Counted from the first letter of the stretch, positions 5,194 through 46,601 are shown. The stretch is 64,000 nucleotides of DNA from a phage (GCA_024875585.1 GCA_024875585.1_4107.1), one strand, 5' to 3'. The notes: generated from the sequence alone by a model not told the origin. Translations and numbers: made by a program.

Positions 5194-5577
5194 ATGAAAA
5201 AAAATATGAATATAGATTTGAAAGGTGCAACCAGAACTGTTATCCTCATTGGTGAATACGCTATCAAGATTCCAACCTTCAAAAGCTGGAAGTTATTCTT
5301 AACGGGAATGATAGCTAACCTAAATGAACGTTCGTGGATGCAGTACTCCAATCGTAGTGACAGTAGTATCTGTCCTACGTTGTGGTCATCATGTACTGGA
5401 CTAATAACTGTACAGAAACGTTGTAAGCCAGTACAACATAGGGGTTTATTTTGGGTGGAGTTGTGTGCTTTAGCATTGAATTCTGAGTTAAGTATTGACT
5501 TCTTCTATTCAGATGCGAAGCCAGAAAACTTTGGGTATCTGGGTGGTAAGTTAGTTAAACTTGATTATGGAGATTAA
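5194..5577 (+). CDS. minimal kinase-fold protein ending right after the DFG-like motif
   Basis: GATRTVILIGEYAIKIP (G-loop + Lys), SDAKPENFGY (D-x-K-P-x-N catalytic loop), KLDYGD (DFG-like) then stop. Confidence 0.55.
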   Translation: MKKNMNIDLKGATRTVILIGEYAIKIPTFKSWKLFLTGMIANLNERSWMQYSNRSDSSICPTLWSSCTGLITVQKRCKPVQHRGLFWVELCALALNSELSIDFFYSDAKPENFGYLGGKLVKLDYGD

Positions 5578-5578
5578 T

Positions 5579-5848
5579 ATGTACGCATTGTATAATAAAG
5601 AAAAGAAACAATTTGCTAAGGTTGAAATTTCGATTGATACATTTGATATGTTGGAGTACTGTATTGTAACGGACCCATGTGCTAACTTGTATTACGTTCA
5701 TGATGACGTATCAGTACTGCAACGATTGCTTGAGAGTTCAAAAAGTCAATGTCAGGGAATCCATGATGGTTCATCCTATGAAACTCCTGAGTGTTCATAT
5801 GGCTGTCTGGATGGATATGAGATTGTTAAGTTAGGGATCGTTGAATAA
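5579..5848 (+). CDS. hypothetical protein (89 aa), paralog of 3437..3694
   Basis: ATG 5579 after ggag; track start 5561 overlaps upstream gene. Confidence 0.65.
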   Translation: MYALYNKEKKQFAKVEISIDTFDMLEYCIVTDPCANLYYVHDDVSVLQRLLESSKSQCQGIHDGSSYETPECSYGCLDGYEIVKLGIVE

Positions 5849-5850
5849 AG

Positions 5851-5887
5851 AAAAGGGTTGACTTTAGTCAGCCCTTTTTTCTATAAT
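5851..5887 (+). promoter_or_regulatory. bifunctional terminator hairpin / promoter
   Basis: aaaagggttgac-ttta-gtcagcccttttt; TTGACT(5858-63)-18nt-TATAAT(5882-87); near-identical copy at 10530. Confidence 0.6.
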
Positions 5888-5915
5888 CATTTCATCGGAA
5901 CGGAAGGATGTTGAA

Positions 5916-6398
5916 ATGAACTATTTAGATTTAATTAATACGTATGTCATCAGCCCATATCTTAACGATGAAAGTATCAAATGTGTAGTATCTGTTGATA
6001 ATCATCCAAATGGTGCATTAGAACTATTCGGTGCAGGACAGATTAACAATCGTTGTGGGTATACTTTTGAGTACTTACCAGAAAGAGATGTATTTGGTTG
6101 TTATGACCACAAAATCAAAAAAGGTGCTATATGGGGTAATCACAAAGATATTGCACAATCTTCACTTTTCGAAGATCATAATGGATATATGTGGCGTTCT
6201 CTTGGTGCAGTCCTACTTGATATCGCCCGTAGATATAAAAAGCGTATAACTCTTACTTATACACATACAGTTGAATATAAAAATGAAGTACAAGTAGAAG
6301 ATGAAGAATTTTTTAAAAGTATCCCGTACATTGAATTCAACTTCCAAAACGGGTATGCTATATATCCTGATGATTTTATTGGTGAAAAATATTTTTAA
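5916..6398 (+). CDS. hypothetical protein (160 aa)
   Basis: SD ggaagga; clean ORF. Confidence 0.8.
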   Translation: MNYLDLINTYVISPYLNDESIKCVVSVDNHPNGALELFGAGQINNRCGYTFEYLPERDVFGCYDHKIKKGAIWGNHKDIAQSSLFEDHNGYMWRSLGAVLLDIARRYKKRITLTYTHTVEYKNEVQVEDEEFFKSIPYIEFNFQNGYAIYPDDFIGEKYF

Positions 6399-9311: not shown

Positions 9312-9827
9312 ATGACACGCATTAACTTAGTACACGTTAAAGAACTTGCAGACCAACATCTGATGGCTGAATATCGTGAACTACCACGTGTATTTGGTGC
9401 TGTACAAAAACACGTTCAAGCATGTAAGCGTGTACGTGATTTCAAAATTAACAGTACTTATCTGTTAGGTTCAGGTCATGTGACATTCTTTTACGACAAG
9501 TTGCTGTACTTACAGAAGCGTCATATCGATATTGTCAACGAATGTTTGCGTCGTGGTATGAAGATTCAAAATACTGAAGTAAACGACATTAGCAGCTTCC
9601 CTGCTGAGTTTTGTAATGACTATGTACCATCGGAGTCAGAGATTGAAATGTCTCGTAAGCGTTTGATTGAGAAGCTTCAGATGAAGCCTACGTGGTATAA
9701 GTTTACTGATGTTGAATGTCCACAGTACGTTACAGATATGCTGAACGTAAGTAGTAAGTTCGAATATAGTACGGCTATGTTAGACGAAATTGAAGAACAA
9801 ATCAAAGATGAAATGAATAATTATTAA
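9312..9827 (+). CDS. denV: endonuclease V, pyrimidine-dimer DNA glycosylase/AP lyase
   Basis: [50 protein letters not shown] is near-colinear with T4 DenV as I recall it; about 35 extra acidic C-terminal residues. Confidence 0.92.
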
Positions 9828-14939: not shown

Positions 14940-16085
14940 TTATTTTTTCCAAGGAAGTAACGAAGTTGGAATCTTGATAGGTATATTTGATGCAACAACA
15001 TCAGGAAAATTTGCATCTCCACAAACATACAAATTATCGATTTCGTCTATCAATAATGTATAGTTGTAACTTCTACAAAAACCACTTAAGACTCTTCCCT
15101 CTAATGCAGATAAATTCATTTCAGTGAATTGAGTGATATATGTTTCATTTGAACCAACACCACATTGACCATTAGCATTTATACCACAAGTAAGCAATTT
15201 ATTATTGTTTTGAATTACACATGATGGTCCAGCAAGGTTCGTACCTAGTTCACCTACAACATTAACTTCACCTTTTAATGATAAATTTGGGATCACTGTA
15301 CTCATTGGGACTCGAGATGTATTTCCGACACCTGCTTGCCCTGAGCCATTAGTGGATGCTACTTTAACAGTACCGTCATTAAGAAAAATATAAGATGTTT
15401 CGATTGTATTAACTGCTTGAGTAGCTGATGTTATTGACGTATCCTGTTTGAATTTAAGTACATTTGTCGTTGTTGAACCAGAGATAAATGTAGCACCTGC
15501 GTACCAATATGTTCCATCCTGGAGTACTAAACCAGTACTTCTAATTGAACACCCAGCACTTCGAACATTTTCTATATGACTATATGTAAAGGTTGATACG
15601 ATTGAAGATTCACCATTACCGAACACCCCACCAGTACCTGCACCACAGAAAAACCATTTACCGTTTTTCAAAAATACACGCATACAAGCAGAAATAACCA
15701 CACTATCAATATCACTTGCAGTTACACCAAAATCGGTAAAGAAATGAGTTATATCAATCCAATTACCACCAGTATTTGATGGGAGATGTGGAATTACAAC
15801 TCTAGTCCCTGTGTACCAGATTGTATCATCATCTTTAATAACAAGCGTACCTTGAACACCACCCCAATACCTGGTTACATTAGTATTAACAAGTGTCCAC
15901 TCATTAGATGATTCCGTTGAGCCATTACCACCTTGACCATATGATGATGAACCGCACCAGTATAAATTGCCATTTTTATTTAAATAAAATTTTGCATCAG
16001 CCGAACATTGTAATCTGTATTTGAATACAGTTTTTGGTGCTGGTGCAATATTTGCATACTTAATCATTCTTCCAAAAGGTAACAT
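14940..16085 (-). CDS. RCC1-like repeat (beta-propeller) protein, paralog 1
   Basis: N-terminus MLPFGRMIKYAN; repeats LYWCGSSSYGQGGNGS, WFFCGAGTGGVFGNGES, LLTCGINANGQCGVGSNE. Confidence 0.75.
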   Translation of the reverse strand: MLPFGRMIKYANIAPAPKTVFKYRLQCSADAKFYLNKNGNLYWCGSSSYGQGGNGSTESSNEWTLVNTNVTRYWGGVQGTLVIKDDDTIWYTGTRVVIPHLPSNTGGNWIDITHFFTDFGVTASDIDSVVISACMRVFLKNGKWFFCGAGTGGVFGNGESSIVSTFTYSHIENVRSAGCSIRSTGLVLQDGTYWYAGATFISGSTTTNVLKFKQDTSITSATQAVNTIETSYIFLNDGTVKVASTNGSGQAGVGNTSRVPMSTVIPNLSLKGEVNVVGELGTNLAGPSCVIQNNNKLLTCGINANGQCGVGSNETYITQFTEMNLSALEGRVLSGFCRSYNYTLLIDEIDNLYVCGDANFPDVVASNIPIKIPTSLLPWKK

Positions 16086-16151
16086 ATTTTCCTCCTTTAT
16101 TCATTATACTGTATTTAACCCAATTAAGAAAAGCCAGTATCAAGTACTGGT
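16086..16151 (-). promoter_or_regulatory. conserved upstream cassette (SD + TATAAT) plus terminator hairpin of the gene above
   Basis: minus-strand reading: ccagtacttgatactgg hairpin, ...cagTATAATgaataaaggaggaaaatATG; -10 at 16103-16108. Confidence 0.5.
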
Positions 16152-16157
16152 ATTTTA

Positions 16158-17507
16158 TTATTGTAATGGAATTTCAGTGAGTGTTTTATATGTACTTCCG
16201 TTATACACCCCTCTCCAATATACTTTACCATCAGTACTAACCACTAATAATCCATATGTTGTAAACCCAAGAGTACCACCAACATACATAGCATCTTTGA
16301 TTCTAATACCAATGTCTTCATATGTAAATGACGCGACTGCACCCGCTTGCCATGACGGACTAGCGTAGTAATCACTATAAACACCATGTGCTTTATATAT
16401 TGATGTTGTTCCTGGTTCAAAAATTACAGTTCCACAGTAGTTCATTCGTATTTTAGTACTGGATGAAGTTGGTACATTTATACCCACGTCATCTTTTATC
16501 CCTGTGGTTAGAACGTTAAAACCCCCCGCCACACGGTTGACATCATTCTCACCGATTGAATACATACCAACGTTGTAGCCCATATAATACACACTAGAAC
16601 TTCCATTCCAGAAAGAAAAACCACCACCATTACCACAGCGATATAGTTGTGAATTTGAGCAGTACATCATACCTTCGTTTGTTGCATCAAATTCATCTGC
16701 TGTTCCGATCACAGCCACTGTAGTCCATGTTTTAATCACTTGGTTTGCACTAGCGGGTTTTTGAATACCATATCGTATATTATATCCTTTACCGACTATT
16801 GTACCATCTTCTAATTTGGCATAAAGTACAGGTCTATTACCAACAAAATACATATTATTGTGTGACATGTCTATTGTACGTCTTAATGAAACTACTTTTT
16901 TTGTCAATTGATTATCTTTAGTAAAAGACGTAAAGTAGTAATCCGATGTTGAATTGTTTATTAAACCTTGTATTGACAACCCCATATACCAGATTTCTCC
17001 CTTACTATTCAAAGATGCCAAAATACAACTATATTTTGAAGTGTATGTTGGGTTTACTGAAGTTGCTGGTCCTTTGTCATATCCACCACAGAATACCATC
17101 TCCACAACTTCACCTACGTTAGCAAAATAAGAAGATACATTGATAAAACCATTTGTTATAAAAGGTGCTGTATTTATACTTGAATGTGTGAATATCCCAT
17201 TTGCATATACACCACAAAAATGATATGAACCATCATTATCTTGGACTATTATTCCATTTGATAGTAACCAAAAATTGTTTACATTTTTTCTTACTAATTC
17301 GATTCCTGCCCCATTAGTTGGCGTTATACCAAAAGAAACATATTTTGTTTGACCAATTCCATATAAATTTCCATTTGATGCTAATATTGCACCAAACCAA
17401 TTACCACCACCATTCTTGTTATGACCCATACCTATAGAATCAAATTTCTTAACAGTAGGAGCTTGTACTTTGTTCCCATAATTCACCATTCTTCCAAAAG
17501 GTAACAT
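16158..17507 (-). CDS. RCC1-like repeat protein, paralog 2 (most diverged)
   Basis: N-terminus MLPFGRMVNYGN; LYGIGQTKYVSFG, LYRCGNGGGFSFWNGSS. Confidence 0.65.
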   Translation of the reverse strand: MLPFGRMVNYGNKVQAPTVKKFDSIGMGHNKNGGGNWFGAILASNGNLYGIGQTKYVSFGITPTNGAGIELVRKNVNNFWLLSNGIIVQDNDGSYHFCGVYANGIFTHSSINTAPFITNGFINVSSYFANVGEVVEMVFCGGYDKGPATSVNPTYTSKYSCILASLNSKGEIWYMGLSIQGLINNSTSDYYFTSFTKDNQLTKKVVSLRRTIDMSHNNMYFVGNRPVLYAKLEDGTIVGKGYNIRYGIQKPASANQVIKTWTTVAVIGTADEFDATNEGMMYCSNSQLYRCGNGGGFSFWNGSSSVYYMGYNVGMYSIGENDVNRVAGGFNVLTTGIKDDVGINVPTSSSTKIRMNYCGTVIFEPGTTSIYKAHGVYSDYYASPSWQAGAVASFTYEDIGIRIKDAMYVGGTLGFTTYGLLVVSTDGKVYWRGVYNGSTYKTLTEIPLQ

Positions 17508-17573
17508 ATTTCCCTCCTTTATTCATTATACTATATTTAATACTAAAAGAAAAAGCCAGTATCAAGTACTGGC
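17508..17573 (-). promoter_or_regulatory. conserved upstream cassette + terminator hairpin
   Basis: ...aaatatagTATAATgaataaaggagggaaatATG (minus); hairpin gccagtatcaagtactggc 17555-17573. Confidence 0.5.
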
Positions 17574-17579
17574 ATTATG

Positions 17580-18689
17580 TCATTTTGGTAAATTAATTTT
17601 AGTAAAGACTGCAACATCCTCGATTGCACCAGGAATTGCGTAATACGATCCAGTACTATATACATCTCCGTCTTTGGTTAATATTGATGTTAAACCATCA
17701 CTAAAAAGAACATCCCTAATCTCACTAACTTCAACGGGTAATTGTAAATTAGTAGCACTATATATTGCACCAGTTTGAGAATTGTTTAATCCCAAACCAC
17801 GGTTCGCCCCAACACCCTTCTGATATGTACTAGTAATTACCATTTGTGTAGCAGTATTTAAGGCAGGTGAATTCGTCATAAACAACGGTGAACTATTAGG
17901 CAAAGTACTTGCAGGAACTGCACGAAATGTAGTTGTATCTGAACTAAGAAAGTTTGGCGTTTGACCACATACGAAATATGATGTACCATTATAGTAATTA
18001 AATGCATTACCACCAATGACTGCATCGATTACACCAGAGCTACGTAATCCCCACGTGTTAATTTGTGTTCGGTTCCCCGTGCCATGCTGACCCCTGTCAT
18101 TCCACCCAGAACTATATAACTTATTATCTAATGTAATATACATACTGTCATTTGCATTCGTCATTACTTTACGCACATTAGTAGCACATTGAGTTAATGT
18201 GTAAATTGATGATGAACCAATACCTAAAGCACCACGATATCCATTAGCTCCTGCACCATAGAGTACTGAACTAGTGCTAAGTACAAATATTAAACCATAC
18301 GAACATACAATATTAGCAATTTCACTCACTGGTATAGCACTGGTAAACCAATTAGTTCTTTCAACTAATACTGTGCTGTAAGAAGTAGTTGTAGACGATG
18401 TGAACCAATATGTTTCCCCTGATGTCCATATAGTATTATCATTTTTAATAATAACAAGTGCACGATCACCTACGAAAAAATTAGAAACATCTGCACTTAC
18501 TAATATCCATGAAGATACCGTGTTTTTATTACCATTTCCAGATTCACCACCTTGATTTCTACCTATGTAATATAAATCATGTGAATCAGTTAATAAGAAT
18601 TGACCCTGTGTAGATGCACCAACTTTAATTATATTTTTAGGACCAGGTACAATATTCCCATAATCAAACATTCTTACAAAAGGTAACAT
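17580..18689 (-). CDS. RCC1-like repeat protein, paralog 3
   Basis: start at MLPFVRMFDYGN (18689) as in paralogs; LYYIGRNQGGESGNGNK, LYGAGANGYRGALGIGSS, LYSSGWNDRGQHGTGNRT. Confidence 0.75.
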   Translation of the reverse strand: MLPFVRMFDYGNIVPGPKNIIKVGASTQGQFLLTDSHDLYYIGRNQGGESGNGNKNTVSSWILVSADVSNFFVGDRALVIIKNDNTIWTSGETYWFTSSTTTSYSTVLVERTNWFTSAIPVSEIANIVCSYGLIFVLSTSSVLYGAGANGYRGALGIGSSSIYTLTQCATNVRKVMTNANDSMYITLDNKLYSSGWNDRGQHGTGNRTQINTWGLRSSGVIDAVIGGNAFNYYNGTSYFVCGQTPNFLSSDTTTFRAVPASTLPNSSPLFMTNSPALNTATQMVITSTYQKGVGANRGLGLNNSQTGAIYSATNLQLPVEVSEIRDVLFSDGLTSILTKDGDVYSTGSYYAIPGAIEDVAVFTKINLPK

Positions 18690-18760
18690 AACTAAAATCT
18701 CCATATAATAATTATAATGTATTTACAAAAAAATACCAGTACGTATTTCAGTACTGGTAT
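18690..18760 (-). promoter_or_regulatory. upstream cassette + terminator hairpin
   Basis: minus reading gtaaatacatTATAATtattatatggagattttagttATG; hairpin ataccagtac-gtatttca-gtactggtat 18734-18760. Confidence 0.45.
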
Positions 18761-18763
18761 CAT

Positions 18764-19945
18764 TTATGGTAAAATGATAGATTGTAACGAACTCATACCC
18801 AATGCTGGAACACTAGCCTGTGGTGCTGGAGAATTCAATTTTGGTGATGAAACCGCATATGACATTCCTGAACCCAAATCTGGATCAAAAACTACAGCAC
18901 AATAATTCCCACTATATATAAGTCCATTCTTGTATCCTTGTGCACTTTGAATGCATTTCGTGAACGTACCAATATCTGTCGTGGCATTTATTAAGTTCCT
19001 CCCACGATAACCGCAGGTGTATATGAAATTATCATCGCCTATGTACATACTAGAATCCCCAGAAGAACTACATAGATACGACATATAAGCACGCATGTTT
19101 TTAGGAGCAACTGACAATGTACCTGCATAGAATTTATTATTCGAACCCGTAATATCACCATCACCCAATGCACCAAAACTTCCCCAGCCAGTACCGTAAT
19201 ATCTCTTATCACTCAAAAATATAATACAGTTGTTATTACACATCTTGATTTGATATATCAATGAAGGATCAACCCCAGGGAATGATTCAGTGAATGTTAG
19301 AACAGCCGGATCAGTACTAGCATTACATTGATGATATGTATTAGTACCAGCGGACAAGATTGTTCCATTAGCTAACAGAATTCTCGCAGTACCAGTACCA
19401 GCAGTACAAGCAACTGCACTTCCTGCACTTCCGGTGTATATTTGTCTGAAAGTAAAGAAACCAACAGTTTTACTTCCCTGCCCACTCCAACCAGTATTAT
19501 CAACTCCACACGCCCATACTGAACCATCTTGCATGATCATCATTACACCAAAGCGTTCTATTGAAATATAAACAATCTTCGTTGTATCAACTGCACTAAA
19601 TCTAGAAGTTATATCAGTCCATACCTTAACACTTACCGCCGTCGCACTGGAAGTAGGATCTTCACCAGCTATCATTATCCTCCCATTGTTAGTAAGATAC
19701 ATTGTCTGACTATAACCAGTACTACAAAACTTAACACTATCAGTCTCTGGAACTTTTAACCACTCGTTGTAACGTGTTACGTTAGTGTTATTACCTAACT
19801 GATAATAGTTATTCATCCCAGATACATATAACACACCATCCTTTATTAAACTATAAGTCGCACTATAGTCACTACAGGTATAACGTGTACCCACAGGTCG
19901 CTCAACGACGTTCCCGTACTTAACCATTCTCCCAAAAGGTAACAT
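18764..19945 (-). CDS. RCC1-like repeat protein, paralog 4
   Basis: MLPFGRMVKYGN; LYVSGMNNYYQLGNNTN, VWACGVDNTGWSGQGSK, YYGTGWGSFGALGDGD. Confidence 0.75.
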   Translation of the reverse strand: MLPFGRMVKYGNVVERPVGTRYTCSDYSATYSLIKDGVLYVSGMNNYYQLGNNTNVTRYNEWLKVPETDSVKFCSTGYSQTMYLTNNGRIMIAGEDPTSSATAVSVKVWTDITSRFSAVDTTKIVYISIERFGVMMIMQDGSVWACGVDNTGWSGQGSKTVGFFTFRQIYTGSAGSAVACTAGTGTARILLANGTILSAGTNTYHQCNASTDPAVLTFTESFPGVDPSLIYQIKMCNNNCIIFLSDKRYYGTGWGSFGALGDGDITGSNNKFYAGTLSVAPKNMRAYMSYLCSSSGDSSMYIGDDNFIYTCGYRGRNLINATTDIGTFTKCIQSAQGYKNGLIYSGNYCAVVFDPDLGSGMSYAVSSPKLNSPAPQASVPALGMSSLQSIILP

Positions 19946-20011
19946 ATTTTCCTCCTTTATTCATTATACTATATTTAATACAAAAAGAAATGCCAGTATC
20001 AAGTACTGGCA
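19946..20011 (-). promoter_or_regulatory. conserved upstream cassette + terminator hairpin
   Basis: ...aaatatagTATAATgaataaaggaggaaaatATG (minus); hairpin tgccagtatcaagtactggca 19991-20011. Confidence 0.5.
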
Positions 20012-20018
20012 TATTAAT

Positions 20019-21167
20019 TCATTGTATAAATGACATATCTACTTCTGTATAATTAAGAACGTTCTGTCCAGAAATACCACCCATTACTACTATTGCAAGG
20101 CCACAATAATATAATTTTCCAGTATCCGTAAGTATAAGTGATCCAGATGGACTGCGTACCAAATCACACGAACTATTAAAAGAAGTATAAGAAGGAGTAT
20201 AGGAGTACTGATTATTATTATTACCAACACCTAATTGCCCAAACCCATTCGATCCAGAAGCATATAGAACTTCATCTGCTTTGACAATATGTGATGCCAT
20301 GTTACCAACACAAGTATATAGAGTATAAACTCCTGAACTCAATAATGTCGGAGTTTTATATTGTATATCTGTAGATGTAGAAGTACCACCTGTACCAAAT
20401 TCGTTCCCATATTGTGCACCGAACTGTTTACCACAAGCGTACAAATTATTATCCGATTTGATAAAAAATGTACTCTGATAACTTACATTAAAATCTATAA
20501 CATCCGAAGAAATCATCGTCACCCCAGTAATAGAAGTTTGATTACCCGTGCCCAACTGGTAGTAATAGTTAAAACCACAACCCCATAAAGTATTATCTTC
20601 TCGCAAATAAATGTTACCAACTGCCTTTTTAACCGAAGTTATAGTATCTACTCTTTTGAATGTGTTAAAAGAATTAATGTTTGTACCATCACCAAATGAT
20701 GATATGTTCGATATATTGTTAACTCCACAACAATACAATGTACCATCTTTTGTTATCAAATTCACCTTCATATCATAAAAACTACTCATGTATTTTATAT
20801 CAGAAACATTAACACCACTTGATGTTATCCACGTAGTACAGTCCGTCCACAAAGTTTTTCTATCAGTTACACCAGTGAATGCCTTCGTGTTACCAGTGAT
20901 AAAAACTTTTCCAGTACCTTTCTCTTCATACAATTGACAATCACTACTGTTATCTTCCAATAGAACTCGTTTAACATTCTCCGCACAAAGAATAAATTTA
21001 CTCGATGCTACACCTGTACCAGTACCCCAATTCGTCGCAGAAGATGCATACAACTTATCAGTATAAGTATCATGAAGATACATAGAATCACTGGAATATA
21101 TTTTAAAACGCCCTTCTTTCTCAGGTATAATATTCCCGTACTTAACCATTCTCCCAAAAGGTAACAT
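20019..21167 (-). CDS. RCC1-like repeat protein, paralog 5
   Basis: MLPFGRMVKYGN; LWGCGFNYYYQLGTGNQT, LYACGKQFGAQYGNEFGTG, LYASGSNGFGQLGVGNNN. Confidence 0.8.
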   Translation of the reverse strand: MLPFGRMVKYGNIIPEKEGRFKIYSSDSMYLHDTYTDKLYASSATNWGTGTGVASSKFILCAENVKRVLLEDNSSDCQLYEEKGTGKVFITGNTKAFTGVTDRKTLWTDCTTWITSSGVNVSDIKYMSSFYDMKVNLITKDGTLYCCGVNNISNISSFGDGTNINSFNTFKRVDTITSVKKAVGNIYLREDNTLWGCGFNYYYQLGTGNQTSITGVTMISSDVIDFNVSYQSTFFIKSDNNLYACGKQFGAQYGNEFGTGGTSTSTDIQYKTPTLLSSGVYTLYTCVGNMASHIVKADEVLYASGSNGFGQLGVGNNNNQYSYTPSYTSFNSSCDLVRSPSGSLILTDTGKLYYCGLAIVVMGGISGQNVLNYTEVDMSFIQ

Positions 21168-21209: not shown

Positions 21210-21238
21210 TTGACACCCTTTCAGTACTGTTGTACGAT
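21210..21238 (+). promoter_or_regulatory. sigma70-type promoter of the family C array (divergent from RCC1 island)
   Basis: TTGACA(21210-15)-17nt-TACGAT(21233-38); spacer contains cagtactg. Confidence 0.55.
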
Positions 21239-21263
21239 AGAAGGAATATTAGGAGAACTACAC

Positions 21264-21491
21264 ATGACAAATACCCTTAAGTACTACCTCAATACTCTGC
21301 CCGACCTAGAGTACGGGAAGTTTCTCGCAGATAGTTCGTGGCTGATTGAGCTAAAAACACATAACAGCCCTGGATGCACCCTTATGATGAACAATGCAAT
21401 TGATACCCTTATAGTGAGTATTTTACATAGCAATATCTACGAGGATAACAATAAACAATTAACAAAAATCTTAGTACTGCTATCTCTATGA
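21264..21491 (+). CDS. family C small protein (diverged member)
   Basis: ATG 21264 after aggag; LKYYLNTL.., MNNAIDTLI.., tail ILVLLSL. Confidence 0.65.
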   Translation: MTNTLKYYLNTLPDLEYGKFLADSSWLIELKTHNSPGCTLMMNNAIDTLIVSILHSNIYEDNNKQLTKILVLLSL

Positions 21492-21700
21492 ACACTATGA
21501 GCACTGAACAGTTCTACATCAATGCACTACCAACTAAAAGTCTTCAAGAAAGCTTACTGTATACACAAAAGAATTTTAAAAACTTCAAACGTTGCCCTAA
21601 ACTACTGAACTCGTACAGGAATAATATTATAAGAAATGTTTTACAAGGAGAAGAAAGTATGCAATACTATCACATCCTTATCCTTATATTGGAGTACTAA
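21488..21700 (+). CDS. family C small protein
   Basis: ATGA overlap; EQFYINAL.., tail ILILILEY. Confidence 0.65.
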   Translation: MNTMSTEQFYINALPTKSLQESLLYTQKNFKNFKRCPKLLNSYRNNIIRNVLQGEESMQYYHILILILEY

Positions 21701-21701
21701 T

Positions 21702-21911
21702 ATGAATACTGAACATAAAGAATTCTACACCAAATACCTCAGTAACGAAGAACAATTGTTTCTAAGAAGTGTATCACCTGTAAGTACCAATACTCAATTC
21801 GGTAGAGATTGCTTTAATAATTGTATACGTAGTACCCTAGAAGCTATCGAATACAATAACAAAAATATTATGTACTCAGGTTTAATAGGACTAATATTCT
21901 TCTATGAATAA
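21702..21911 (+). CDS. family C small protein
   Basis: MNTEHKEFYTKYL.., FNNCIRSTLEAI, tail LIGLIFFYE. Confidence 0.7.
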   Translation: MNTEHKEFYTKYLSNEEQLFLRSVSPVSTNTQFGRDCFNNCIRSTLEAIEYNNKNIMYSGLIGLIFFYE

Positions 21912-22098
21912 TCATAAAGATTTCTATGGTAGTAAACTACACAAACATGAACAGCTATCATTCTCTTTAGCACCACCTATGAGAAAGGATAATCTATATT
22001 ATAATTACGATTTCAGGATGGCGACACGTTATGCAATAGAACATCAGTTCCCTGAAACTAAGTACCGCTCTATCCTGAACCTCATCTTTAAGTTCTAA
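21904..22098 (+). CDS. family C small protein
   Basis: MNNHKDFYGSKL.., tail ILNLIFKF. Confidence 0.7.
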   Translation: MNNHKDFYGSKLHKHEQLSFSLAPPMRKDNLYYNYDFRMATRYAIEHQFPETKYRSILNLIFKF

Positions 22099-22145
22099 AA
22101 ACCGCACCAGGGTCCGAGTACTTTAACATAGTAAGGCTAATTACA

Positions 22146-22331
22146 ATGAATCACATAAGCTACTACTACCAACAACTATCCGACAGAGACAAGTACAGCC
22201 ACAATTCCCATGTATGGTACTACAAACGCGGCAGTATAAGAGACAAACAACATTACTTCTGTATTTCTATTAAAGAAGCACTAACAACTAAGTACACGTA
22301 CAGAGCAGTACTTAAACTAATCTCTATCTAA
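22146..22331 (+). CDS. family C small protein
   Basis: MNHISYYYQQL.., tail VLKLISI. Confidence 0.6.
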   Translation: MNHISYYYQQLSDRDKYSHNSHVWYYKRGSIRDKQHYFCISIKEALTTKYTYRAVLKLISI

Positions 22332-22339
22332 GGAATACT

Positions 22340-22519
22340 ATGCAAGAATTCTATATAGAACATATAACCATAAAAGACCGTTTCATGTACGACACCTTCG
22401 TGAAATACTACAAACTGGGAACAAAAAGTACTAAAAATATAAATCTCAATAGCTGCATTCATTCTGCACTAACAAAAGAAAATCCCTTCAGGGAAATCCT
22501 TGCACTTGCATCTGTATAA
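22340..22519 (+). CDS. family C small protein (59 aa; below ORF-track cutoff)
   Basis: MQEFYIEHI...NSCIHSALTKEN...ILALASV; SD aagga. Confidence 0.6.
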   Translation: MQEFYIEHITIKDRFMYDTFVKYYKLGTKSTKNINLNSCIHSALTKENPFREILALASV

Positions 22520-22529
22520 AGGAATTCAA

Positions 22530-23189
22530 ATGAAACTTAATCCACACAGTAAACAATACCTTAAGCACTTTAAATACCTCAACAGTATTCAAGCAGAATC
22601 AGTTACATCATCTTATACGTATCACCCGAATATACTAAAGAAACGAAATAAAAAGAAAAAATCCAGACCTGTTCTCGTATCTAAGAACCTCAAATCGTAC
22701 TTGAAGAAAAATAATATAGCTCTTGCTTTTATTAGTATCTATAATACTGATTTAAAAGTATTGAGTACTAATACCAGCACAAAAGCACTAAAGAATGCAT
22801 CTATCTATATACACATGGATAATATCCCGTGCACTATAATTCTATCTTTCGGGAATGTATACTTCTTCGGGAATTGTAATAGCACCCATGATATCAGTAC
22901 TGCACAATTCCAAATCGGAGATATGTACTGCATGGGTTCAGAAAAAATACACGATAACATGCACTTCTTCCAAAAGCAACGTACTAACGAAACTGATACA
23001 GTACTGCAATTCCTCAAAGAATTACAAAACAAAGAATTATCCGAGGAAGAAGAATTCATGTACAGTACTGTAATCGATAATCCAGGACTCTATAAAAACG
23101 CGTACAAACTAACAAAACATGTACAGGAACTTATCAGTACTGATAAGAAATTCCATCACCTCATTACGTATATTTCAAACTATGTATAA
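22530..23189 (+). CDS. hypothetical protein (219 aa) embedded in family C array; family B-like core
   Basis: ATG 22530 after aaagga; LSEEEEFMYSTVIDN resembles family B LSDESLFQYSTMYDN (Q replaced by M). Confidence 0.7.
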   Translation: MKLNPHSKQYLKHFKYLNSIQAESVTSSYTYHPNILKKRNKKKKSRPVLVSKNLKSYLKKNNIALAFISIYNTDLKVLSTNTSTKALKNASIYIHMDNIPCTIILSFGNVYFFGNCNSTHDISTAQFQIGDMYCMGSEKIHDNMHFFQKQRTNETDTVLQFLKELQNKELSEEEEFMYSTVIDNPGLYKNAYKLTKHVQELISTDKKFHHLITYISNYV

Positions 23190-23364
23190 AGAATTCTACA
23201 AAGATAAAATCCCAATGCATCTACAACACCATATACCAAACGTTGCATTGGGCATAAAAGATCACGCAAAGATAATGTTCCAACAATGTACTAAGTACAC
23301 GCTCATATACGATGATAATCCATATATGCTGTACTACGTAGTAATGCTAACATTCAGGTACTAA
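23182..23364 (+). CDS. family C small protein
   Basis: MYKEFYKDKI.., tail VVMLTFRY. Confidence 0.7.
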   Translation: MYKEFYKDKIPMHLQHHIPNVALGIKDHAKIMFQQCTKYTLIYDDNPYMLYYVVMLTFRY

Positions 23365-23365
23365 T

Positions 23366-23545
23366 ATGCACAAATATAAAGAATTCTACCTCTCGTACCT
23401 TAATTCCGATATAGTAACATCCAATACCTTCAGTACTAAAATTATCTATAATGAAGTAATGAAAGAATGTATTAAAGGTGCTATTAACCCTAAAGATACG
23501 TATGACTTGTACTATGCAGTACTAACCCTTGTTTTCACGAAATAA
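23366..23545 (+). CDS. family C small protein (59 aa; below ORF-track cutoff)
   Basis: MHKYKEFYLSYL...MKECIKGAINPK...VLTLVFTK; ggtactaatATG junction. Confidence 0.6.
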   Translation: MHKYKEFYLSYLNSDIVTSNTFSTKIIYNEVMKECIKGAINPKDTYDLYYAVLTLVFTK

Positions 23546-23553
23546 CACATAAT

Positions 23554-23742
23554 ATGAATAACCACAAAGAATACTACATACAATTTCTCCCCAGTATTTT
23601 TGAACACTACGCCAGATATAAAGTCCCCCTGGATAACGATTTGGCAGTACTGGGATTCAATCACTGCATAGAACGAAGTATAGAAAATAGTAATAGCTAT
23701 GAACAATTATATAACACTATCCTACTTATATTCAGGTACTAA
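23554..23742 (+). CDS. family C small protein
   Basis: MNNHKEYYIQFL.., FNHCIERSIENS, tail ILLIFRY. Confidence 0.75.
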   Translation: MNNHKEYYIQFLPSIFEHYARYKVPLDNDLAVLGFNHCIERSIENSNSYEQLYNTILLIFRY

Positions 23743-23743
23743 T

Positions 23744-23932
23744 ATGCACAAAGAATACTACGCAAAATATTTCCCAATGTATCTCAGAACTAATCTATTA
23801 GATAAACCTCGCGATATCAATGCACAAAACGATAAAGTGTACTTTATTATGTGCACTAAAGCATGTATACTAGATCATGACAGCTACCATCGAGTACTGT
23901 ATCATACACTGTACCTAGCTTTCGTATTCTAA
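23744..23932 (+). CDS. family C small protein
   Basis: MHKEYYAKYF.., tail LYLAFVF; ggtactaatATG junction. Confidence 0.75.
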   Translation: MHKEYYAKYFPMYLRTNLLDKPRDINAQNDKVYFIMCTKACILDHDSYHRVLYHTLYLAFVF

Positions 23933-23941
23933 GAGAACAAT

Positions 23942-24127
23942 ATGCATAAAGAATTCTACTTAAGCCATCTGGATCTAAACTCCCAAATGCTTATACCACT
24001 AATCCCAATAGATATCAAGGATAAGAAAAATACCGAACAATTCATTTACCATACACAGTGTGCGATCACCCCAAATTACATTCCATATGAATTGTACTAC
24101 ATTCTCGCCCTAATATATAGGTACTAA
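23942..24127 (+). CDS. family C small protein
   Basis: MHKEFYLSHL.., tail LALIYRY. Confidence 0.75.
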   Translation: MHKEFYLSHLDLNSQMLIPLIPIDIKDKKNTEQFIYHTQCAITPNYIPYELYYILALIYRY

Positions 24128-24128
24128 T

Positions 24129-24314
24129 ATGCATAGAGAATACTACACACAATTTGTTAAAGGGAACTACAAACATGCCGTACCCAGAACCCCTTTAAAT
24201 TCTCATGACCCAAGTACTATATTCCTGTTTAATGACGCAATACGTACAGTACTCAATACTAAAGATGAACAAGTGCAGTACGTATTCTTACTTTTACTTA
24301 TATACAGACACTAA
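24129..24314 (+). CDS. family C small protein
   Basis: MHREYYTQFV.., FNDAIRTVLNTK, tail LLLIYRH; 18-bp tandem duplication (atacagacactaactaat x2, 24302-24337) at its 3' junction. Confidence 0.75.
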   Translation: MHREYYTQFVKGNYKHAVPRTPLNSHDPSTIFLFNDAIRTVLNTKDEQVQYVFLLLLIYRH

Positions 24315-24337
24315 CTAATATACAGACACTAACTAAT

Positions 24338-24520
24338 ATGAATAAAGAACATAAAGACTTCTACATAAGAAAACTAACATTCGTCCCCGTAAGAATATAC
24401 AAAGAATGCGACCCAAGATTATACCTATGGCACTTCAATGAGTGCATAAAAGATTCTATATACCCTAAGAACTATAAAGAACAATTGTGCTCAGTACTAA
24501 CACTAGTACTATCATATTAA
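24338..24520 (+). CDS. family C small protein
   Basis: MNKEHKDFYIRKL.., FNECIKDSIYPK, tail LTLVLSY. Confidence 0.75.
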   Translation: MNKEHKDFYIRKLTFVPVRIYKECDPRLYLWHFNECIKDSIYPKNYKEQLCSVLTLVLSY

Positions 24521-24533
24521 TAGAGATAATACT

Positions 24534-24725
24534 ATGTATAAAGAGTACTATATAAGTAAACTCAAAGAGAATGAACAAGCATGGATTAAATCTATAATAG
24601 CACTTGCATTTAATAGATATGCATTTAACAGATGCACAGAGATTGCTATAGAACCTTGTCCTATTAAAGAGAAGGCACAGTACAATCAGTACTACTATAT
24701 GTTAATGCTTATATATAGAAAGTAA
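24534..24725 (+). CDS. family C small protein
   Basis: MYKEYYISKL.., FNRCTEIAIEPC, tail LMLIYRK. Confidence 0.75.
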   Translation: MYKEYYISKLKENEQAWIKSIIALAFNRYAFNRCTEIAIEPCPIKEKAQYNQYYYMLMLIYRK

Positions 24726-25381
24726 TTCAACATAGAGACAGGGGAAGCTCCGCAGGGTAAGCATTGGACAGGCTTTAACATATGTTATATATGTTAAAAT
24801 TCAGCCTGGACAAATGCGATCACTAGGATTCTCCCCAGGCTAAACCCCGTAATCATATATAAACATTTAAGTAATCATTTATAATCATTGTGGTGATCAG
24901 TAGTGATTAGTATTGAGTACTAGAGTGTAATAGAGTACAGGAATGTGCACGTTTAATCAAGAACGTAGCAGTACTGATATGCCACTAAGTAGGCAGAGGA
25001 AGTCTGCCGTACTTTGTAGTTTCCAAGCTCCTTTTCCATTTTGCAAATTACATCAAATGTAATCAAAAGTAATCACGTAATGATTAGTACTGAAATATTA
25101 GTTTCATCTTTTTTCAAATACCTTTTTACCCTTCGGGATAAATGTATTTTTATCCATTTACCTTTGGGGTAAAATCCCATTACCCCTTGAGGCTCCAGCA
25201 AAAAGTTGGAAAGTACTCCATCGTAAATATGGATCGTAAAAATTTTGGAGTACCTATGAAATAAAAGTTGGATCTTCGAAAGTTGAAATTTACGTTGGGA
25301 CATTGATGTTTTTTGGGATATAATGAGTTTTGTAGTGATGAAGTTTGTACGATTACAGTACTGAATAATGAAAGAAAGCTA

Positions 25382-25409
25382 TTGACATTATGATTCAGTA
25401 CTGTATAAT
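25382..25409 (+). promoter_or_regulatory. orphan sigma70-type promoter (no ORF downstream)
   Basis: TTGACA(25382-87)-16nt-TATAAT(25404-09) with cagtacTG extended -10. Confidence 0.55.
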
Positions 25410-25811
25410 GTTCTACATAGAGAGATGAGTTGCCGCAAACAATTCATTCACTCTACCTCCTGTCGTGAGACAGTACAGAAAAGATAGTTCCTCCTATGCG
25501 TGGTACATCTTTTTATAACCTCTTTTTTAGTAATATAAACAGTACTGGTATTAACAGAATGGTATCAGTACTGACTTTAATCTAATACATTATACCACCA
25601 GCACAAGCTGGTGGATTCCCTCTAACAGTATTCAGTACTACATGATAGTCTTCATCCTCCTAGGGTAACATAGTGAGGGCTATTGTGGGAGTACTGAATA
25701 CTCCTTTCAAAAGATAGAATAATGGTATAGTACCGACGGATTTTGGGCGTAGTTACCCTGGGTGGATTTTGGACGTAGATATGTCTAGCCCTCCAGAAGT
25801 CTGGAAGTAAA

Positions 25812-25923
25812 GATGGCTATCCATCTAGACGGCTAAACGGATAGATTTCTAGATGGCTGTATGGCTAGACGTTTGGATGGCTAAACGGCTAGATGGTTAC
25901 ACGTCTGGAAGTATAGACGGCTA
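25812..25923. repeat. 8-bp-periodic iteron-like array (about 14 units, consensus GAYGGCTA)
   Basis: gatggcta tccatcta gacggcta aacggata gatttcta gatggctg tatggcta gacgtttg gatggcta aacggcta gatggtta cacgtctg gaagtata gacggcta; flanked by gtctggaagta at 25797 and 25901. Confidence 0.7.
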
Positions 25924-26084
25924 AATCAAAATTTTTATTTTGTTTTTCCAATAGTTCCCCTACCGCGTGAGGATATTTTTCCCCGCAGTATCTGGAGTTA
26001 GATTTTTCTGAATCTGGAATCATTATCTAATAAACTGGGGGCAATGTCAACCGCCTGGATGAATATTTTTAAAAATAATCTAGT

Positions 26085-26174
26085 ACTGAATTTTGGGCGT
26101 AACTATGCACCCGGTGGGCTTGAGTCTTTCTCGACTTGATGAAACTATTATACAGTACTAGAAAAATAAAGCAA
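26085..26174 (-). ncRNA. candidate small-RNA unit (own promoter + CCCAC-core transcript)
   Basis: minus reading TTGCTT(26174-69)-16nt-TATAAT(26152-47), then agtttcatcaagtcgagaaagactcaagCCCACCGGGTGCatagttacgcccaaaattc; no ORF. Confidence 0.35.
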
Positions 26175-26261
26175 TACCCTAAACGCAAAAAAATTTAATT
26201 AATTTGCTTGCTATCCTGGGCCGTAATATGGTACTATTAGTTCAGTACTGAGAAAGTGCTT

Positions 26262-26290
26262 TAACCTGCTAGGGTGCGGGAGTGTATCCT
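26262..26290 (+). repeat. partial plus-orientation copy of the CCCAC-N-GGGTGCGGGAGTGTATC element
   Basis: ctgctAGGGTGCGGGAGTGTATCc; faces the reverse copy at 26313-26324. Confidence 0.5.
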
Positions 26291-26294
26291 TTTT

Positions 26295-26391
26295 AAATTA
26301 TATGAATTTTGGGCGGATCTCGGCACCCTGTGGGTCAGTGCCTTGTGTCCGGCTTATGTAGTAATTATACGCTTTTTCAGTACTGAGTCAA
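26295..26391 (-). ncRNA. candidate small-RNA unit (own promoter + CCCAC-core transcript)
   Basis: minus reading TTGACT(26391-86)-16nt-TATAAT(26369-64), then tactacataagccggacacaaggcactgaCCCACAGGGTGCcgagatccgcccaaaattc; GGCAC/GUGCC can close an 11-nt loop. Confidence 0.35.
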
Positions 26392-26628
26392 TAGCTAAAA
26401 ACAAAAATAATTGAAAATAATTTAACGCGTTTAAACGGCCCGTAAAGCCCTGGAGTGATTGGAATGGTACAAATGTATAGCTTAGGTGTATTAATGCGTT
26501 AGAATGCGATTGAGGCCGTTTTATGGGGTGTAGTGGTGATTTGATTGATTCAGTACTGAATAATAGTACTGAAAGATAGTTCCCCTATATAGAAAGAAAA
26601 CTATTTTAAAAGTACATGTAGAAAGTAC

Positions 26629-26687
26629 TTGCAAACTATCTCAATTGGCGTATAATGTTTTACATCGAGAGCGGGAACACTTCCCGC
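26629..26687 (+). promoter_or_regulatory. early-type promoter + GGGAA/TTCCC leader hairpin
   Basis: aaAGTACTTGCAA-16nt-TATAAT(26651-56); hairpin gcgggaa-cac-ttcccgc 26671-87. Confidence 0.65.
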
Positions 26688-26711
26688 TGCACATAAAGAG
26701 AGATTAAAACG

Positions 26712-27074
26712 ATGGCTACTCAAATCAATAAAATTATTGCTAACCTGGTTAACTTCCGCGACGAGATGAAAGGTCTTCCGGCTGAAACGGTAAAAATTCA
26801 CATTTCAGCTTATCGGGAACTTATTGCAATGTTACCGCTTAAGCGTGAACAATACGCCGCTACCGTGATGCTTGATGCGATGATCCATAAGATGATCGCC
26901 AGTGATTTAACGATGGTTTATCAGTACATGGGCGAAAATTTCGCGGTGTCTGGTAAGCCAGTACCAGGGATGGCAACTACTGAGGAATTGCACGGTTTAA
27001 ATTTAAAACAAGATGCATGGGATAATATGCCTCGTTTCCTGGTATGGGCTGACAGTGGCAAAATTTACAAATAA
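26712..27074 (+). CDS. hypothetical protein (120 aa)
   Basis: clean ORF after promoter/hairpin; purine-rich SD agagag. Confidence 0.8.
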   Translation: MATQINKIIANLVNFRDEMKGLPAETVKIHISAYRELIAMLPLKREQYAATVMLDAMIHKMIASDLTMVYQYMGENFAVSGKPVPGMATTEELHGLNLKQDAWDNMPRFLVWADSGKIYK

Positions 27075-45010: not shown

Positions 45011-45150
45011 GGACTATGGCAAAATGCGTAGGGGGGCTAAAGTGCGGGTAACTTAGCGGCTTCGATAAAGGGGTATTACGAATAAAATGTTATTGACTTT
45101 TTATATAAATCGTATAAAATATGATTGATAATAATTTTAAGGGAGTCCCT

Positions 45151-45539: not shown

Positions 45540-45745
45540 AAACTATAACACGAACCCAATCATACGGACTTATCTTGAAATACATGGACTTAATGGTGGA
45601 TATCAGCAAAGACCTGCCTAAAACTGCAATTGAAGTTGCAAGAGCAGAGATCCGCATGTTGGCTGTACTGAACACAAACCATCAGGAAGAGTATGTTGAC
45701 GATTGGATTCGATTTTTAATAGAAGATATTAAGAGTAAACTATGA
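45536..45745 (+). CDS. family A small protein A3
   Basis: ATGA overlap; LNTNHQEEYV...IKSKL. Confidence 0.85.
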   Translation: MKTITRTQSYGLILKYMDLMVDISKDLPKTAIEVARAEIRMLAVLNTNHQEEYVDDWIRFLIEDIKSKL

Positions 45746-45954
45746 TTATATTAACACCTGAAGAATATAAGAAACGTTTTAATTCTGTCCAGACTGAAAT
45801 ATTACTTATATACCTTTCAAATGCAGATCTTAACTTATCAAGGGTAATGGAGAAGGATTTACTTATGGGTGCATTTTTGGATACAGACTTTCAGGAGTAT
45901 TATGTAGGGGAATACTTTATTGCACTTCAGAACCACATTAAGAGTAAACTATGA
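45742..45954 (+). CDS. family A small protein A4
   Basis: ATGA overlap; MIILTPEEYKKRF; LDTDFQEYYV. Confidence 0.85.
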   Translation: MIILTPEEYKKRFNSVQTEILLIYLSNADLNLSRVMEKDLLMGAFLDTDFQEYYVGEYFIALQNHIKSKL

Positions 45955-46166
45955 TTATTCTAGAAAAATCATATCAATATACTGAACGCATCGCTGCCAG
46001 ACAACTTGAAATCCTCATAATATACGAAGAGACTTCTGATTTAAACTTAGCCGAGGTATTGGAAAATGAAATACTTTTGGGTGCATTCTTGGGAACAGAC
46101 TATCAGGAGTATTATGAGGAAAAGTATTTGTCATCTCTTGAGAAATACGTCAGGAGCAAACTATGA
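45951..46166 (+). CDS. family A small protein A5
   Basis: ATGA overlap; LGTDYQEYYE. Confidence 0.85.
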   Translation: MIILEKSYQYTERIAARQLEILIIYEETSDLNLAEVLENEILLGAFLGTDYQEYYEEKYLSSLEKYVRSKL

Positions 46167-46390: not shown

Positions 46391-46601
46391 TAACTTTGAA
46401 TACGAGGCCCGTGCTAAGAGTGCCAGAAAAAAAGAGAACACCATTTACTTCACTATGATGTACTTACAATGGACTGAAATTGAAGAAAAGGTTGCTGAAG
46501 TATGGATGTTGGAATTCATGGGGACGCAGTATCAGAATAGGTTTGCGGGTGAGTATATCAATGTTCTTATGAAACAAATAGAAAGGAAGGAAAAGAACTA
46601 A
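46377..46601 (+). CDS. family A small protein A7
   Basis: MGTQYQNRFA. Confidence 0.8.
   Translation: MNIINNFEYEARAKSARKKENTIYFTMMYLQWTEIEEKVAEVWMLEFMGTQYQNRFAGEYINVLMKQIERKEKN

Follow-up and report, generated by a model that had tools for sequence, protein, structure and literature searches.

The left end of phage T7 combines a terminal repeat with short repeat arrays and the strong host promoters A1-A3, which precede the first gene. In E. coli, the regulator MetJ recognizes the metbox AGACGTCT, an 8-bp site that it binds as tandem copies; its operators usually comprise 2-5 boxes, and the boxes of its whole regulon number roughly 50. Here we analyse 64,000 nucleotides of phage DNA (GCA_024875585.1; this whole stretch is referred to as the window, and all coordinates are counted from its first base), with emphasis on a gene-free hub at 24726-26711. 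The hub is the longest ORF-poor stretch of the window in a greedy map of open reading frames (ORFs), where the runner-up gap is 426 bp, as a preliminary description made from the sequence had already recognized; that description regarded it as a candidate origin, pac site or protein-loading site. Within it lies an array of 14 contiguous 8-bp units, which score as MetJ boxes. Our reading, to which we assign a probability of about 45%, is that the hub is a genome-end control region which would load host MetJ.

In T5, a phage with a comparable layout, Repeat Region 3 is a 1.2-kb untranslated 'repeat maze': most of it belongs to the left terminal repeat, 270 bp extend beyond the boundary, and the injection stop signal is assigned to it; the first-step shear point is estimated at ~9618, and the origins of replication map near the genome centre (Davison preprint). 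Fur and MetJ are unmentioned in that preprint. For the Chi sites discussed below, the orientation rule and terminal, oriented clusters are known from P1 and LLS (PMC12315714), and in the jumbo phage fEgEco12, a relative of the window phage, direct terminal repeats of 20,993 bp have been established by PhageTerm and restriction digests (PMC13070987).

The hub resembles Repeat Region 3 in being a large untranslated, repeat-rich region that spans a repeat boundary, with an overrun of 262 bp; in holding clusters of host-regulator-like boxes, with ATTTTGGG-type boxes nearby in both; and in belonging to a long direct terminal repeat with fixed ends, as indicated for the window phage by homology and published data on a relative. 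In the T5-like phages of Vibrio, Aeromonas and Providencia, the 8-bp array itself recurs in the position of Repeat Region 3. T5 itself differs in having Fur-like and DnaA boxes instead of metboxes, and its repeat genes are divergent, whereas nearly all ORFs of the repeat region in the window point away from the hub. A tblastn search of the window with T5 A1, A2 and dmp returns nothing below E = 0.07, remote homology lying outside the search, and between 24600 and 26800 there is neither a match to the DnaA box TTWTNCACA nor one within one mismatch of TTATCCACA. With the left end of T7, the hub shares a non-coding leader with a short-repeat array and, at a few hundred bp from the end, a host promoter of consensus sequence; T7 differs in its repeat units and in the length of its repeat (160 bp, against 20 kb here), although the T7-like phage PGT2 does bear a metbox array.

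A tandem array of metbox-like units

The array was located as follows:

25811-25922, unstranded: 14 contiguous 8-bp units, tandem metbox-like (AGATGGCT ATCCATCT AGACGGCT AAACGGAT ...), scored with the MetJ matrix

Tandem Repeats Finder and a repeat finder place the periodic array at 25812-25924, and the fourteen units of the preliminary description are recovered at 25811/25812-25922/25923. The 25-nt direct repeat said to frame them, whose two copies (25795 and 25899) are 104 bp apart, belongs to their 8-bp register, with an extra metbox-like unit, AGAAGTCT, at 25795-25802; the reported richness in CTAG is real and stems from the unit junctions (...CT/AG...). When the register is shifted by one base, the units read AGAYGKCT, which resembles the metbox, and the array was therefore scored with the symmetrised MetJ matrix and thresholds of PMC3228920. 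There, an operator consists of at least two adjacent 8-bp boxes, each with at least a quarter of the consensus score, and the site total is at least the consensus score, which is 12.58 bits here. All 14 boxes of the array pass, each with at least 3.24 bits, for a total of 98.4 bits, so that it qualifies as a MetJ operator by this definition; the second-best run anywhere in the window has two boxes and 10.8 bits. As controls, the E. coli metJ/metB and metF operators yield four boxes each, with 31.2 and 24.9 bits, and apart from these two the E. coli control locus shows no run above one box. The single-box threshold is passed by 1.5% of the 8-mers in the window, which gives an expectation of ~1e-21 for runs of 14 units. 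Only one register of the array scores, and among the column permutations of its units only the observed order (1/40,320) reaches the observed score.

The resemblance extends to the composition of the units. In 78 units from jumbo phages, the base frequencies agree with the published half-site table at seven of the eight positions, minor alternatives included, and 60 units from T5-like phages likewise follow the MetJ half-site preferences (A, G, A, C/T and their mirror) at seven of eight. The units are heterogeneous and dyad-symmetric, unlike the perfect microsatellites found in IMG/VR. With the E. coli operators they share contiguous, dyad-symmetric 8-bp units, boxes of 3-11 bits, and a conserved T/A junction; they differ from these in number (14 here and 9-34 in other phages, against four in each operator scanned), in location (the terminal repeat rather than met promoters), and in the frequent G at position 6. 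No met gene lies near the array, and it does not occupy the promoter of a gene of the methionine/S-adenosylmethionine (SAM) regulon. E. coli has metJ, and MetJ would probably bind the array in vitro; the earlier proposal of a protein-loading site is favoured to the extent that each of the 14 units satisfies the MetJ operator matrix. A reading of the array as a CsrA-sponge RNA was dropped: its 112 nt hold only three GGA motifs, and the units have the dyad symmetry of DNA sites.

The genome end within the hub

Comparison with relatives places the array close to a physical end of the genome. The preliminary description missed that the hub is a terminal-repeat boundary, which is defined by the following features (carets denote cuts):

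24982-24993, plus strand: left boundary of the direct terminal repeat and very probable genome end, CCACTA^AGTAGG, cut between 24987 and 24988, by homology to four records
24988-45053, unstranded: direct terminal repeat, 20,066 bp, right limit by homology to fEgEco12 20,993 (...GGGTAACT^TAGCGG)
45049-45058, minus strand: right repeat boundary, ...TAACT^TAGCG, cut between 45053 and 45054, by homology; reads CTA^AG into the repeat
24987-25014, plus strand: inverted repeat at the cut, capable of forming a hairpin or cruciform, AAGTAGGCAGA-ggaag-TCTGCCGTACTT; -8.0 kcal/mol, z = -4.4, conservation 0.91-0.99
24726-24987, unstranded: non-coding tail of the unique region, without a conserved ORF and with conservation far below that of the repeat interior; holds the hairpin 24768-24815

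AGTAGGCAGAGGAAGTCTGCC, which corresponds to 24988 in the window, opens the records of fEgEco12, vB_Ec-M-J and BF17, and the record of G17 ends, on the reverse complement, at the base homologous to 24988. Since four relatives' records thus start or end at this point, the left boundary of the terminal repeat falls within the hub, which comprises 262 bp of unique DNA and the first 1,724 bp of the repeat, and the genome end is very likely to lie at 24988. In fEgEco12, AGTAGGCAGAGGAAGTCTGCC also opens the right copy of the repeat at 353,741. Repeat lengths in related phages are 20.0-21.5 kb overall (20,668 bp in Sharanji; 21,525 bp annotated in vB_Ec-M-J); in the window the repeat is present once, as in a collapsed or permuted assembly. 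Among the relatives, conservation rises from ~0.4-0.55 outside the repeat to 0.9-1.0 inside, despite the DNA being non-coding. As to the pac site or termini proposed earlier, the hub does contain the genome end, while the array, lying 823 bp inside it, is therefore not the cut site.

CTA^AG occurs at both repeat boundaries, reading inward on opposite strands, and the Klebsiella phage Muenster, which belongs to another genus and has unalignable sequence, also shows CTA^AG at its right boundary on the reverse complement (positions 1026-1036 of the stretch read). The opposite-strand polarity would be what duplication of the repeat by a nick-and-displace mechanism requires. In GAP32, CCACTA^ stands directly before the homolog of the XbC2 record start, and in Asteriusvirus a GAAGTC/GACTTC motif is found 6-18 nt from each cut.

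Distribution of the array and a proposed interchangeable slot

Distant BLAST matches of the hub fall on the array in Rak2-like genera (GAP32, Erwinia phage pEa_SNUABM_12, XbC2 and Yersinia phage fHe-Yen9-04) and in Vibrio and Aeromonas T5-like phages, mostly near record starts. Arrays of this type were found in 96 phage records from three unrelated groups: the Rak2-like jumbo myoviruses (Asteriusvirus, Mimasvirus, Eneladusvirus), the Demerecviridae of Vibrio, Aeromonas and Providencia, and the T7-like Ermolevavirus, represented by PGT2 and phiKT. Relatives have 12, 14 or 15 boxes, which implies that the copy number shifts by whole units; Vibrio phage Pontus has 15, Aeromonas phage AhSzq-1 has 28, and Providencia phage PR1 has nine that are near-consensus. 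Across the groups the array lies inside the repeat, at 40-830 bp from a genome end that is known or presumed: 823 bp here, ~650-680 bp in pEa_SNUABM_12, XbC2, CBB and Serratia phage BF, ~770 bp before the repeat end in PR1, and 38-109 bp from the record start, presumably the genome end, in PGT2. A 21-nt stretch that is identical in PGT2 and GAP32 suggests horizontal spread. When IMG/VR was scanned for five degenerate boxes in tandem, most of the matches were perfect 8-bp microsatellites from bins of giant viruses and carry no information here; the only heterogeneous arrays of the metbox type were those of Ermolevavirus and of contigs as large as T5-like phages. The longest one seen has 34 contiguous boxes and 272 bits (IMGVR_UViG_3300033696_000004, an uncultivated 119,931-bp contig of T5-like size, positions 4513-4784 of the stretch read). 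The array is unmatched in 72,556 plasmids.

A phage gene for the binder was not found: 50,697 phage records contain no MetJ homolog, the three matches being bacterial contigs or host fragments; Pfam detects no domain of the ribbon-helix-helix (RHH), MetJ or Arc families in 48 ORFs of the repeat region; and tblastn of E. coli MetJ against the window yields nothing. MetJ is confined to the Enterobacterales, Pasteurellales, Vibrionales, Aeromonadales and Alteromonadales (PMC3228920), and nearly all hosts of the array-bearing phages belong to these five orders. The occurrence of the array in three unrelated groups, the lack of a phage MetJ or RHH gene in these searches, the hosts that come nearly all from MetJ-bearing orders, and the absence of the array from the Xanthomonas phage XaC1 together favour a host factor over a phage factor.

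Where metboxes are absent, the same slot holds other sites. Klebsiella phage Muenster and T5 have no metboxes, and in their metbox slot are clusters that match the Fur-box consensus GATAATGATAATCATTATC at 14-16 of 19 positions, with seven matches in Muenster (0.22 expected) and four in T5 (0.09 expected). The clusters lie at 787-905, 1073-1097 and 1306-1324 of the Muenster stretch and at 9574-9639 of the T5 record (775-840 of the stretch), where they bracket the first-step shear point at ~9618. The conserved box TTCCAATAGTTCCCCTACCGCG, which comes after the array in the window, comes after the cluster in Muenster too, and in T5-like phages DnaA boxes adjoin the slot. XaC1, a more divergent relative that infects Xanthomonas, has no array; its slot contains other palindromic repeats, TAATCATTAGCATCCTAATCATT / GATAATTAGCATCCTAATGATCA (stretch 780-880), which may be sites for a Xanthomonas regulator. 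These patterns point to a slot that would accept interchangeable arrays of sites for cooperatively binding host regulators. In the literature searched, neither MetJ or metboxes nor Fur boxes are linked with phage termini or the T5 stop signal.

Chi sites in the terminal repeat

The terminal repeat is rich in Chi, as given by exact octamers:

25595-25614, unstranded: back-to-back Chi pair CCACCAGC-acaa-GCTGGTGG, 608 bp from the end, hairpin z = -5.7
31976, 36288, 37430, 38365, 41884, 43461 and 43685, plus strand, and 31914, minus strand: other Chi sites of the repeat

What had been described as a GC hairpin is thus two inverted Chi sites, a pair that is conserved in G17, UE-S1, fEgEco12, vB_Ec-M-J and BF17. 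Where 0.21 and 0.15 Chi sites are expected on the plus and minus strands, the window has nine and two (11 against ~0.36 in all); ten of the 11 fall within 24988-45053, split 8:2 between the strands, with a single one in the other 44 kb, and six are not covered by any ORF of 40 aa or longer. The Cronobacter phage GAP32 has nine plus-strand sites in its first 50 kb (0.22 expected), seven of them at 9.8-23.3 kb. By the orientation rule (PMC12315714), the plus-strand sites act on RecBCD entering at 45053 and the two minus-strand sites on RecBCD entering at 24988. The P1 and LLS clusters are alike in consisting of exact octamers, far above expectation, in or near terminal repeats and with an orientation bias toward one DNA end; the window phage is unlike them in being a virulent jumbo myovirus with a fixed 20-kb repeat and a Chi palindrome 608 bp from the other end. 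Judged by the shared properties, this is a terminal, oriented Chi cluster, for which dependence on RecBCD is predicted: a RecBCD nuclease that enters at the DNA ends would be converted by Chi into a recombinase, and recombination between the repeats would be favoured.

Promoters, hairpins and conserved boxes around the array

The remaining elements of the hub flank the array and the Chi pair:

25382-25409, plus strand: perfect sigma-70 promoter TTGACA-16-TATAAT, 394 bp from the end and pointing inward; 12/12, 98% conserved in relatives
26022-26050, minus strand: promoter-like TTGACA-17-GATAAT, ~100 bp right of the array, directed leftward through it to the end; 11/12, conservation 0.94
26629-26656, plus strand: promoter-like TTGCAA-16-TATAAT ahead of the first repeat-region gene (26712-27074), from the sigma-70 scan
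25738-25781, plus strand: two GGATTTTGGRCG boxes directly upstream of the array; more copies at 26088-26099 and 26304-26315
25923-25967, plus strand: T-rich tract, then the conserved box TTCCAATAGTTCCCCTACCGCG (25946-25967), straight after the array, from comparison with relatives

Of the several promoters without an ORF that had been proposed, the 12/12 site and two minus-strand sites at 11/12 stand out individually, although the total of seven sigma-70-like sites in the hub is no excess over shuffled sequences (7.9 +/- 3.4). Similar elements can be read by eye in other phages: pEa_SNUABM_12, XbC2 and Muenster show promoter-like sequences of the TTGAC type at a distance of 270-330 bp from their ends, and XbC2 also has a leftward AAAGTACTTGCAT...TAATAT element in the place equivalent to that of the leftward site here. 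The hairpins reported earlier all beat shuffles: 24768-24815 and the Chi pair both with z = -5.7, and 25126-25195, which falls in an indel-variable, poorly conserved patch, with z = -2.4.

TTTTGGRCG has four matches in the window, all within the hub. One GGATTTTGGRCG box precedes the array in GAP32 and in pEa_SNUABM_12, and one is kept in XaC1 (stretch 1140). The four boxes, also found in the form GRATTTTGGGYG and in the hub only, start at 25738, 25764, 26088 and 26304, and three of them are followed by a CACCC-N2-GTGGG-like sequence. T5-like phages have similar ATTTTGGGG boxes between the slot and the repeat end; in the stretches read, boxes of the ATTTTGGGG type occupy 1225-1260 in T5 and 2865-2890 and 4300-4345 in two further stretches. 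Box TTCCAATAGTTCCCCTACCGCG follows the array also in GAP32, pEa_SNUABM_12, XbC2 and fHe-Yen9-04. In the segment 26206-26295, CAGTACTGAGAAAGTGCTTT...GCTAGGGTGCGGGAGTGTATCC and a short run of T come after a promoter-like element; this segment is ~70% conserved with the Klebsiella phages RaK2, K64-1 and Muenster (stretch 1215-1300), which are otherwise unalignable here, and may encode a candidate small RNA of ~50 nt.

Composition and genes of the hub and its surroundings

The greedy map contains only two short ORFs in the hub (25073-25303 on the minus and 26274-26414 on the plus strand), and the ORFs of the hub, these two included, differ among five relatives and are not conserved. Against phage records, the hub gives 45 matches in the Asteriusvirus group, with 87-93% identity and including the jumbo coliphages PBECO4, 121Q and G17; by these matches, the source of the window is an Asteriusvirus jumbo coliphage. 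Rfam returns no credible family, neither at gathering thresholds for the whole window nor at permissive E-values for the hub (best E = 2.8, far below gathering scores), and ARAGORN finds neither a tRNA nor a tmRNA, in keeping with the earlier statement that there is no tRNA-like T-arm. The compositional switch noted at the same time is present as well, with GC climbing from ~0.34 to ~0.385 across the hub. Among the 48 repeat-region ORFs, searched in concatenated form, Pfam recognizes only DksA/TraR zinc-finger, GNAT, ParE-like and DUF7249 domains; the ParE-like toxin domain, the sole partition-type match, sits far from the hub.

The first genes past the hub vary. G17 and fEgEco12 have three small genes there (420, 240 and 267 bp; G17 stretch 4887-5991 and fEgEco12 stretch 1689-2794 are the counterparts of the gene start at 26712 in the window), and in the window, UE-S1, vB_Ec-M-J and BF17 the first gene is one of 363 bp; because of this difference, hub matches among relatives extend over ~3.1 kb in some and 2.0 kb in others. 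Five large ORFs of similar size (374-449 aa) stand in a row on the minus strand at 14940-21167, and long runs of plus-strand ORFs of 60-90 aa occupy both flanks of the terminal repeat (21210-24725 and 45742-52375). The GC skew of 20-24 kb is -0.22, though genes from 21.2 kb on are on the plus strand.

AGTACT, a palindrome, has 225 copies in the 64 kb, where composition predicts ~20; in the hub it stands for example at 25356, 25396, 25540, 25566, 26243, 26378 and 26551. Its most common extended form is CAGTACTGA; 84 copies are intergenic (16% of the DNA) and 141 within ORFs, and it abuts the -35 element in promoters of the form AAAGTACTTGCA-N16-TATAAT. It is frequent in all Rak2-like genome ends read, and also in Aeromonas phage AhSzq-1 (AGTACTWWTTCGA repeats).

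Discussion

If the hub acts as a genome-end control region that loads host MetJ, its first 1.7 kb would present, from the end inward, a promoter at +394, the Chi pair at +608, the array at +823, the conserved box, the leftward promoter-like site, and then the first early gene. In the cell, dimers of host MetJ with S-adenosylmethionine would bind side by side along the array, as MetJ does on operators of 2-5 boxes, and would form a protein filament of ~110 bp near each copy of the repeat start. At 28 boxes per genome, multiplied by replication, the arrays would form a sink that draws MetJ off the host met/SAM genes and thereby switches these on; operator sites in multicopy are known to derepress a regulon, which is the basis of the Fur titration assay. 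At the same time, a stable protein block would sit ~0.8 kb inside the genome end. That a sink for the regulator is the main role under selection is possible, if doubtful; a stop or anchor of the T5 type in that capacity is a similarly doubtful candidate; and the data do not separate sink, stop or anchor, and packaging roles.

Several points weigh against loading of MetJ, or limit how far it can be taken. Box position 6 is G in 46-47% of phage units, against ~10% in natural operators, and the true binder could therefore be another protein with a similar preference. Unlike natural MetJ operators, the array does not lie over a promoter, the nearest promoter-like site being ~100 bp away. XbC2 has a good array, and its tested hosts are Xanthomonas only, from an order reported to lack MetJ. 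The whole case for MetJ is built from sequence, and the position of the end is taken from mapped relatives rather than from the window phage itself. Finally, a pure sink would leave the end-proximal position of the array (40-830 bp, in three phage families) unexplained, and a benefit to the phage from switching on met/SAM genes is an assumption.

The layout of T5 offers the nearest alternative, which we consider rather unlikely: a T5-type injection stop or anchor, in which the end at 45053 would enter first and transfer would pause at the protein-coated array, so that at first the cell would have received no more than the 20-kb repeat and its small early genes, and the complex would cap the other end. 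The hub matches Repeat Region 3 in position and in the size of its overrun (262 against 270 bp), the array is found in that region in the T5-like phages of Vibrio, Aeromonas and Providencia, the Fur-like boxes in the T5 slot bracket the shear point, and eight of the ten Chi sites of the repeat face RecBCD entry at 45053, as would suit that end being the exposed one. Against this, the window shows no A1, A2 or dmp homolog by tblastn and the hub no DnaA boxes, the repeat genes read away from the hub where those of T5 are divergent, and the array of PGT2, at 38-109 bp from the record start, would be an implausible place to pause. A role in packaging, with the array bound by MetJ or the small terminase subunit to organise the concatemer junction, the CTA^AG cuts and the duplication of the repeat (a host factor then acting as IHF does at lambda cosB), is unlikely. 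It would account for the fixed, terminally redundant ends that are common to the three groups (documented in the jumbo and T5-like phages, presumed in Ermolevavirus), for the constant location of the array in the repeat at 40-830 bp from the end, for the hairpin at the cut, and for CTA^AG at both boundaries on opposite strands in two genera, with a polarity suited to nick-and-displace; the exchange of MetJ-type for Fur-type sites among close relatives is hard to fit to sequence-specific recognition by terminase, the array is 823 bp from the cut, and the number of boxes varies from 9 to 34.

Two further explanations dispense with the host regulator. Omega, ParG and ParR are examples of RHH proteins whose targets are short tandem repeats, and a phage-encoded binder of this kind could use the units as a centromere-like or regulatory array whose likeness to MetJ operators is coincidental or convergent, as the bias to G at position 6 in all three phage groups and the array of XbC2, on a host reported without MetJ, would allow. 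This is improbable, since the 48 repeat-region ORFs have no RHH, Arc or MetJ domain in Pfam, among them no partition gene for a binder beside the array as at a plasmid-type RHH centromere; no phage record encodes a MetJ homolog; no plasmid in the collection matches the array; one dedicated binder is unlikely to be common to jumbo myoviruses, T5-like siphoviruses and T7-like podoviruses; and seven of eight positions follow the MetJ frequency table down to its minor variants. An origin with iteron-like repeats, as proposed in the preliminary description, is very improbable. The array adjoins a 28-bp A+T-rich tract, its T5-like versions stand beside DnaA boxes, and cumulative GC skew, an inflection of which had been suggested as a check, does have a local minimum at 24-26 kb of the 64-kb window; neither the tract nor the minimum is diagnostic, the change of skew coincides with the repeat boundary and with a change of gene families, the units are contiguous 8-mers rather than helically phased iterons of ~20 bp (17-22 bp), the hub has no DnaA consensus box, Pfam finds no initiator-like gene in the 48 repeat-region ORFs, and the origins of T5 lie near the genome centre.

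The terminal untranslated region of long-repeat phages is already known; its content of a MetJ super-operator that is swappable with Fur boxes appears to be undescribed. Beyond the window, it may tentatively be proposed that arrays of operators for host regulators are an interchangeable, horizontally spread module of terminal repeats in Rak2-like jumbo phages, Demerecviridae and Ermolevavirus, with MetJ boxes here, DnaA boxes in T5-like phages, and Fur-like boxes in T5 and in RaK2-like phages of Klebsiella; the proteins loaded on them would physically underlie the long-unexplained T5 injection stop, end protection or both, and would rewire the methionine/SAM and iron regulons.

If the hub indeed loads MetJ, there would be a candidate binder for a cis element that is conserved at phage ends and so far unexplained, and arrays of host-regulator boxes would be the content of the T5-like injection stop region that has been called a repeat maze since the 1980s. 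The location of physical ends and of a Chi-rich repeat in a group of phages used for therapy work would bear on their annotation and engineering. Bare DNA would then reprogramme methionine/SAM regulation in the host, and in relatives the regulation of iron, before any phage gene is expressed.

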